Translations under genes and position numbers: made by a program
DNA from: a virus
Lineage: Duplodnaviria > Caudoviricetes
Strand: one strand, 5' to 3'
DNA: 64,000 nt
Virus record (IMG/VR): IMGVR_UViG_3300028563_000022
Location: 277-64,276 of that record
Notes under the pieces: model-generated
Databases searched by the model: none
What the model saw: the letters and a program-made list of their open reading frames with translations, nothing else
What the model was told of the DNA's origin: nothing
Part shown: positions 38,462-38,488 of the stretch, in pieces
Position numbering within the stretch: the first letter of the stretch is position 1
Layout of the letters: every line of letters begins with the position of its first letter

Positions 38462-38488
38462 CCCCCGCACAGATTGTCTGTGCGGGGG
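38462..38488. promoter_or_regulatory. Perfect 12-bp-stem inverted repeat upstream of thyX; matched by a TIGR guide
   Basis: CCCCCGCACAGA-TTG-TCTGTGCGGGGG; 38466-38483 equals the joined spacers at 50933-50941 and 50951-50959. Confidence 0.8.

Follow-up and report, generated by a model that had tools for sequence, protein, structure and literature searches.

The DNA analyzed here, referred to as the window, is the whole stretch of 64,000 nucleotides of phage DNA, from a record that consists of one virus contig of 64,276 bases. It carries a guide locus of the TIGR-TasA kind, all genes of which are on the minus strand. The features of the locus are as follows.

49657-50283, minus strand: conserved partner gene P0002, directly after array 1; its product (208 aa) is helical with a C-terminal coiled coil
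50312-50968, minus strand: TIGR array 1, 18 units of 36 nt, between tas and the next gene (repeat scan)
50924-50968, minus strand: array unit 1, consisting of a truncated 5′ edge repeat (50960-50968), spacer A (50951-50959), loop repeat (50942-50950), spacer B (50933-50941) and the next edge repeat (50924-50932)
50974-51831, minus strand: tas, 285 aa, TasA type with a coiled-coil N-terminus, a Nop domain and a Cys4 insertion (profile and structure-database searches)
51859-52047, minus strand: TIGR array 2, 5 units, upstream of tas (repeat scan)
52098-52125, minus strand: promoter-like site TTGACA-16-AATATT directly upstream of array 2, found by consensus match only (10 of 12 positions)

The Tas protein (P0001) matched PDB entry 9MTY, which is TaTasR, with an E-value of 1.8e-21 over the Nop-domain part. 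A family profile of 28 relatives gave 2.6e-42 to 9MTY and 4.5e-14 to TasH chains, and the four cysteines of the Cys4 insertion are invariant across the Tas family. Neither a nuclease domain nor any Pfam family at E up to 0.01 was detected in the 285 aa, in agreement with the first-pass annotation of the sequence, which had called Tas nuclease-less. Judged by these sequence features the phage protein is of the TasA type, as opposed to TasH or TasR, and is predicted to be nuclease-free.

In both arrays, which are on the same strand as tas, the units follow one another strictly every 36 nt; edge and loop repeats alternate, and each unit has two spacers of 9 nt. The 18 and 5 units account for the 23 guides that had been counted earlier. 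On the minus strand a unit reads edge repeat UGCGAGUAA, 9-nt spacer A, loop repeat U(U/A/G)AAACCUA and 9-nt spacer B. Unit 1 is the tas-proximal one, starting 6 nt past the tas stop codon, and has the same repeat motifs as the other units, while degenerate repeats are found at the far end of array 1. Edge repeats of the phage end with UAA and loop repeats with CUA, not with CCA, and the repeat start is partly kept. Repeats with ...UUA and ...CUA ends were also seen in a second group of relatives (L030, L031 and L050). Since the repeat ends depart from CCA in both cases, the box C motif appears to drift in the Tas family; according to Faure et al. (PMC12045711), box motifs of TIGR repeats can diverge.

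The locus shares a number of traits with the dual-repeat TIGR-TasA systems with a ParB-like partner, as these are presented in PMC12045711 and 10.64898/2026.09.09.750476: it is phage-borne, encodes a Nop-domain Tas predicted to be nuclease-free, is built from 36-nt units and has arrays both upstream of tas and between tas and a helical partner gene. It differs in that published repeats have UG (box D) as their first and CCA (box C) as their last letters, whereas those of the phage end with UAA or CUA, and in that one of its guides matches the phage's own genome perfectly, contiguously and on one strand. We assign the locus to the ParB-linked dual-repeat TIGR-TasA systems, as a member whose box motifs are variant.

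Homologues of P0002 were found by phmmer in related tas loci, generally adjoining tas or the arrays (E 5e-36 to 2e-18 among the best 40 matches). Its structure was predicted with a pLDDT of 92, and the top structural matches include DNA-binding domains of ParB, KorB, Spo0J and SopB, at weak scores (Z 4.7-5.8; Foldseek E 1.7). Pfam and PDB sequence searches with P0002 returned nothing besides coiled coils, and a word-based search found no homologues. Operons with 'tasParB' appear in the methods of Faure et al. (PMC12045711), and the position of P0002 agrees with them. On the strength of the predicted fold and the gene position, P0002 is probably the 'TasParB' of these authors.

The promoter-like site at 52098-52125 overlaps a copy of a dispersed 12-bp motif recorded in the first-pass annotation, and the reverse complement of that motif has six letters in common with the loop repeat. 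At the other end of the gene, Tas C-termini in the family often read ...KAA or ...AA, with the first edge repeat within a few bases (L001, L002, L005 and others). The first edge repeat after tas has a conserved truncated form (a T-run plus GCCA in relatives; window positions 50960-50976 here). It seems that the array start is coupled to the end of the tas gene.

Match of guide 1 to a hairpin upstream of thyX

The counterpart of unit 1 lies in an intergenic gap between the following features.

37032-37577, minus strand: dNMP kinase gene, downstream of thyX (phrog_139, 2e-35)
37574-38441, minus strand: thyX, Thy1 family (PF02511, 4e-44), with ATG 38441 as the putative start
38461-38489, either strand: hairpin with a perfect 12-bp stem (38462-38473 / 38477-38488), a 3-nt loop (38474-38476) and an outer G-T pair (folding and hairpin scan)
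38466-38483, minus strand: 18-nt site equal to spacer A + spacer B of array unit 1, exact and unique
38497-38862, minus strand: upstream gene, DUF1937/DUF4406 family (domain search)

When the unit-1 spacers (plus-strand coordinates 50933-50941 and 50951-50959) are joined without the 9-nt loop repeat between them (50942-50950), the 18-mer obtained matches 38466-38483 at 18 of 18 positions with no mismatches. This is its sole occurrence in the window at up to two mismatches. The spacer positions, their letters and the match had all been given in the first-pass annotation and are correct, and so is its placing of the site in a perfect 12-bp-stem hairpin (38462-38488) in the gap upstream of thyX. 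It had also considered the match very unlikely by chance. Simple arithmetic gives an expectation of about 1.7e-4 exact matches when 23 guides are placed in four geometries on both strands of 64,276 bases, and the joined spacers found a match in none of 100 shuffles. Counted as a match of one hairpin to another it has 11 independent positions, and chance is very unlikely even on those.

The match is contiguous and of the same-strand (A+B) type: read on the minus strand, the site gives spacer A and then spacer B, as the array does. Identity between the site and unit 1 ends exactly at both spacer borders. Three bases discriminate between the strands, these being the hairpin loop letters (spacer A positions 8-9 and spacer B position 1), and all three are those of the minus strand. 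The 18-mer straddles the apex of the hairpin as centrally as an even window allows on a 27-nt palindrome, and the stem runs 4-5 bp past the match.

Near-identical DNA is present in four rhizosphere metagenome runs. The hairpin is covered independently by a contig of run X3 (38211-38622) with no differences. Unit 1 itself is covered, among the listed contig pieces, only by run X1, a possible source of the record, which leaves some room for an assembly artefact; the likely source contig in X1 has a depth of 20.8 and spans the whole stretch, again with no differences. Runs X2-X4 leave parts of the stretch without cover, and the joints 37954/48065 and 45151/47226 (21 letters on one side only) were taken as coming from other organisms. 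With an expectation of about 1.7e-4, no match in 100 shuffles, 11 independent positions at the least favorable count and a source contig free of differences at this depth, it is hardly credible that chance or misassembly lies behind the match of unit 1 to the hairpin. At window position 50849, in spacer A of the fourth unit of array 1, a contig of run X2 has A where the record has C (depth 3.8), and spacers of the phage's array may vary between samples.

The hairpin is among only two perfect 12-bp hairpins in the 64-kb genome; shuffled genomes had none. Its RNA folds at -28.7 kcal/mol on the minus strand and at -33.8 kcal/mol on the plus strand (z about -4.4). It lies 10 nt past the stop codon of the DUF1937/DUF4406 gene and 20 nt ahead of the thyX ATG (38441). 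The G+C-rich 12-bp stem, the short loop and the CCCC...GGGG ends are those of intrinsic terminators, as in the hairpin at 57086-57113. The U-tract, however, is absent on the transcribed strand: the T-rich tail is on the plus strand only and the flanking genes are both on the minus strand, so that the hairpin is not a textbook terminator for these genes. The hairpin at 57086-57113, which is the second perfect 12-bp one, has CCCC...GGGG ends and a T-rich tail, is terminator-like and lies where two convergent genes meet; about 30 nt upstream, at 57055-57075, its right arm is partly repeated. A search of 38000-39000 against Rfam gave a sub-threshold C/D-box match only (15.6 bits versus a gathering score of 41). 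This match, to the archaeal C/D-box sRNA sR3 (38339-38395, plus strand, E 0.24), lies antisense inside thyX and is probably due to chance.

Pairing geometry and the guides of related phages

According to Faure et al. (PMC12045711), the 18-bp target of a Tas guide becomes unwound, and its two strands are divided between the spacers, one pairing with spacer A and the other with spacer B. The same authors report that the cuts fall 5′ of the base that pairs with the fifth base of the spacer (C-5 rule) and leave 8-nt 3′ overhangs. Only one arrangement gives such overhangs, with each spacer paired with the 3′ half of its strand, and one target strand must therefore read A followed by the reverse complement of B. 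The displaced segments as described in PMC13421893 agree with this rule. It had been noted from the outset that characterised TIGR guides pair A and B with opposite strands; PMC12045711 bears this out, and the match of guide 1 is a same-strand one. At the hairpin the canonical rule gives a best fit of 12/18 (4+8), or 9+2, and the duplex site is thus not a canonical TIGR target. Since the site is palindromic, each spacer alone has a perfect partner on the plus strand and one pairing at 7-8 of 9 positions on the minus strand.

The first-pass annotation had put forward autoregulation of the thyX-dNMP kinase genes. Plain duplex repression of thyX by guide 1 is ruled out under the published geometry, which is satisfied at 12/18 at best, and the guide cannot pair with thyX mRNA because it has the same sense. 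The annotation had also likened the contiguous same-strand target to box C/D dual guides; such a match is indeed seen, but the likeness to box C/D guides is an analogy only. The RNA sites with which box C/D guides pair are separate, and the loops of bridge RNAs pair with both DNA strands. To our knowledge, neither reads a contiguous 18 nt across a bulged repeat. Box C/D sRNPs and IS110 bridge RNAs, relatives of Tas according to PMC12045711, resemble the present system in having two short guide segments and a Nop-domain dimer.

Related tas loci were collected from viral contigs (52 loci, 32-51% identity by the best tblastn segment). By period scan 48 of the 52 have 36- or 37-nt arrays. In most arrayed relatives the boxes have the published UG...CCA form, from which the direction of array transcription follows. 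Extraction kept 520 of 732 loop-like sites, those with 9+9 spacing and recognisable edges, and 30 more were recovered for two loci. With identical spacer pairs merged, the set comprised 440 distinct guides from 53 records (1,594,225 bases, or 1.59 Mb, with arrays masked; 25 whole records are included). The procedure omits units with 10-nt spacers or poor edges, one of the 23 units of the phage is missing from the set, and a few units of locus L035 are mis-registered. Close relatives of the phage itself were not found in the collections searched, which may lack records very similar to the window: phage records gave 3% cover at best, viral contigs with Tas and this repeat type yielded none, and the methyltransferase led to sequences of 51% identity at most.

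A search of all 23 spacer pairs in every geometry, which the first-pass annotation had advised, was run against the phage's own contig; it returned the exact A+B match of unit 1 and no other. In the phage genome the closest match of any other guide has at least three mismatches in the four geometries. For the 440 guides, searched in four geometries and on both strands of the 53 records, there was no exact match to the same or another record besides that of unit 1, and near matches with 1-2 mismatches stayed at the level of mispaired and reversed controls. A smaller search, with 385 guides on 20-kb loci, had the same outcome. Gapped geometries (any orientation, up to 60 nt apart, up to one mismatch) gave 29 pairs versus 29, 23 and 43 in mispaired controls.

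The base composition of the spacers was compared within guides. Spacer A and spacer B are anticorrelated in purine content (r = -0.18) and in A-T skew (r = -0.20), with bootstrap intervals that exclude 0, and r is about 0 when spacers from different units are paired. For neighbouring 9-mers taken from these records the values are +0.16 and +0.13 on a single strand, and so the negative of these for opposite strands. This suggests that ordinary guides of the family follow the opposite-strand rule. The composition test serves as supporting evidence only, because neither G-C skew nor G+C shows any A/B correlation in the 440 guides and because the purine and A-T signal is weaker once guides with complementary runs are removed. 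Same-strand targeting as a general rule of the family, one of the readings offered at first, is rejected: a single exact match came from 440 guides, controls were equal, there were no further cases, and the composition behaves as expected for opposite strands. Unit 1 is thus an exception and does not represent a family-wide geometry.

Runs of at least five reverse-complementary letters between A and B of one unit occur 19 times versus 7.4 expected, a number that none of 300 shuffles reached. Parallel-complement runs between A and B are also in excess (11 versus 6.0 expected at five or more letters; 5 versus 1.3 at six or more). Direct and mirror A/B runs showed no enrichment and runs across the edge repeat none either. 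We read the opposite A/B bias together with the parallel-complement runs as the mark of an opposite-strand origin from locally skewed DNA, which does not fully cover the long parallel runs. One guide of another phage (locus L044, 729-773) resembles unit 1 in stem length (7 bp), loop length (3 nt) and register; it has no match in its own 12.4-kb contig or in other records.

Unit 1 itself (45 nt) folds at -11.4 kcal/mol (z -2.7), with 1 of 200 shuffles as stable. The spacers of guide 1 form seven G+C-rich self-pairs (-9.4 kcal/mol), which is the fifth lowest value among the 440 guides. For the first units of relatives (32 distinct; 13 loci yielded none on extraction) complementary runs average 2.8 and folds average -1.65 kcal/mol, versus -9.4 kcal/mol here, and a conserved hairpin role for first units is rejected by this comparison. 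These values also bear on the idea that unit 1 is in fact a structural RNA hairpin that might act as an attenuator, stop processing or bind a factor (for example, whatever recognises the hairpin upstream of thyX), and has the format of a unit by accident. The stability of the 45-nt fold and its start 6 nt after the tas stop codon speak for such a role. We nevertheless consider it very improbable, as first units of the relatives are not hairpins, no U-tract follows unit 1, and the exact register of 9 nt, loop repeat and 9 nt is left unaccounted for.

Origin and possible role of unit 1

Among the three readings originally offered, a trace of spacer acquisition fits best, in view of the same order and strand, the inclusion of the loop bases and the tas-proximal position. 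We tentatively favor it, with somewhat less than even confidence: judging from the sequence relations, unit 1 may be self-derived, a copy of the phage's own hairpin and a footprint of the formation of an array unit. The 18 nt straddling the apex of the hairpin at 38462-38488 would have been copied, with order and strand kept, into spacers A and B; the loop repeat would have been placed where the apex lies, and the unit gained at the tas-proximal end of the array. TasA with guide 1 would then be unable to form two opposite-strand heteroduplexes on the duplex site, which would not be a target of the published type. Such a copy would be harmless to the phage because canonical pairing is impossible and Tas is predicted to lack a nuclease.

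A copy is suggested, in preference to a pairing relation, by the common order and strand, the inclusion of the loop letters, the exact fit to the spacer slots and the centring on the apex. As the stem extends 4-5 bp past the match, the hairpin-to-unit direction is the simpler one, and the fact that the site is among only two perfect 12-bp hairpins points to a hairpin-dependent process. We infer that copying went from the hairpin to the array, that it was recent, and that hairpin DNA or RNA is a preferred source. The position of unit 1 next to tas, with the degenerate repeats at the far end of the array, is consistent with this, as are the excess of reverse-complementary A/B runs over shuffles across the 440 guides and the similar L044 guide.

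Several observations weigh against copying of the hairpin. It is a single case, with no same-strand self match among the other 439 guides. The event would be non-adaptive, since by the known rule the copy cannot target its source. Ordinary guides follow the opposite-strand pattern, so that whatever made unit 1 did not shape most guides, and the enrichment of parallel-complement runs (11 versus 6.0) means that the excess of inverted runs may be partly a matter of composition. Finally, selection for pairing would give an equally perfect identity. With regard to the published background, the origin of spacers is given as unknown in PMC12045711 and 10.64898/2026.09.09.750476, and Faure et al. argue in their Discussion (PMC12045711) that array DNA itself, with its A+B layout, is not targeted by the system.

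Self-targeting and leader-proximal acquisition in CRISPR offer a parallel, in that a perfect self match, an effector-proximal unit and degenerate distal repeats are found in both. The differences are that the phage has no Cas1/Cas2-like gene, that the source is split by a repeat and that the copy does not target its source.

The main rival reading is that of a working guide. The TasA complex with guide 1 might act non-canonically and open the phage's own hairpin as a fold-back single strand or cruciform; on the sequence evidence we regard this as possible though doubtful. It is what stands of the same-strand (ssDNA, RNA or cruciform) variant proposed in the first-pass annotation, which does not hold as a general mode. 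The plus strand would enter along spacer B, turn at the end of the loop repeat and leave along spacer A, and TasA, alone or helped by its ParB-like partner, would serve as a mark or a regulator where the DUF1937 gene adjoins the thyX/dNMP kinase genes. Such a path would be topologically possible, since in the structure in PMC12045711 the two spacers run antiparallel between two Nop domains, as the arms of a hairpin do. An apex-centred 18-mer at an intergenic site that is one of two perfect 12-bp hairpins, in a unit that keeps the repeat motifs of the others, agrees with such a role, and guides of the hairpin type recur (L044; the excess of complementary runs). It is also in line with reports that TasA proteins repress transcription (Xu et al., 10.64898/2026.09.09.750476) and that TasR cuts single-stranded DNA matching one spacer (Faure et al., PMC12045711).

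A fold-back target meets with objections, however. All Tas proteins tested in PMC12045711 need opposite strands, and guides with reverse-complemented spacers failed there. The half-sites have no linker, so that the turn needs several frayed pairs, and the seven G+C-rich self-pairs of the guide (-9.4 kcal/mol) compete with target binding. Having the same sense as the thyX mRNA, the guide cannot pair with that RNA either. The composition of the family fits the canonical rule, and no further self match was found, gapped or ungapped (29 gapped pairs versus 23-43 in controls). Narrowed to the proposal that a ParB-linked TasA subtype reads the fold-back strand and that guide 1 is an RNA-guided marker or regulator of the phage's own thyX-upstream hairpin, it appears rather unlikely on present sequence data. 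If it is true, the hairpin may be a loading site for the ParB-like partner, and guides of the L044 type may work likewise. A self-derived unit and a fold-back target are mutually compatible.

The real target could also lie elsewhere, in a host or a rival element with the same hairpin or with a canonical site, the self match being a side effect. Phage TIGR guides are generally thought to be aimed at other elements (PMC12045711, Discussion), and swapped or symmetric guides are allowed according to the same source. For guide 1 a canonical site would be a 7-nt direct repeat spaced 10 bp apart. It is absent from the phage genome, with nothing above 13/18 listed in the window, and there was no exact occurrence in 1.59 Mb of related phages, where sites with 1-2 mismatches (all guides) stayed at control level. 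The hairpin has no exact match as a 21-mer in genome_contigs or metagenome_contigs, or as a 23-mer in viral_contigs. Furthermore, a common hairpin would still need same-strand recognition, and the 18/18 identity within the genome would go unexplained. We therefore consider a target elsewhere improbable.

What is new here is the exact, same-strand, apex-centred self match of a natural guide. In the TIGR texts consulted, neither a same-strand match of a natural guide nor a source of spacers is described, and the natural targets of these systems are treated as an open question in PMC12045711 and 10.64898/2026.09.09.750476. A natural guide is thus given an exact and statistically secure counterpart, an uninterrupted same-strand stretch of its own genome that lies centrally over the apex of a hairpin. 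If unit 1 is a copy, the site would be a first concrete template for a two-spacer unit, 18 contiguous nt split by the loop repeat, and hairpins would be suggested as spacer sources. Should the site be a target, pairing in at least one TasA subtype would obey a wider rule than the published one.

Array 1 also bears signs of changes within the array. In the segment 50492-50860 three neighbouring units have a common variant loop repeat and near-identical spacers, and one spacer B is used in two units with different spacers A. From these units it follows that array 1 grows also by duplication and by reuse of half-units.
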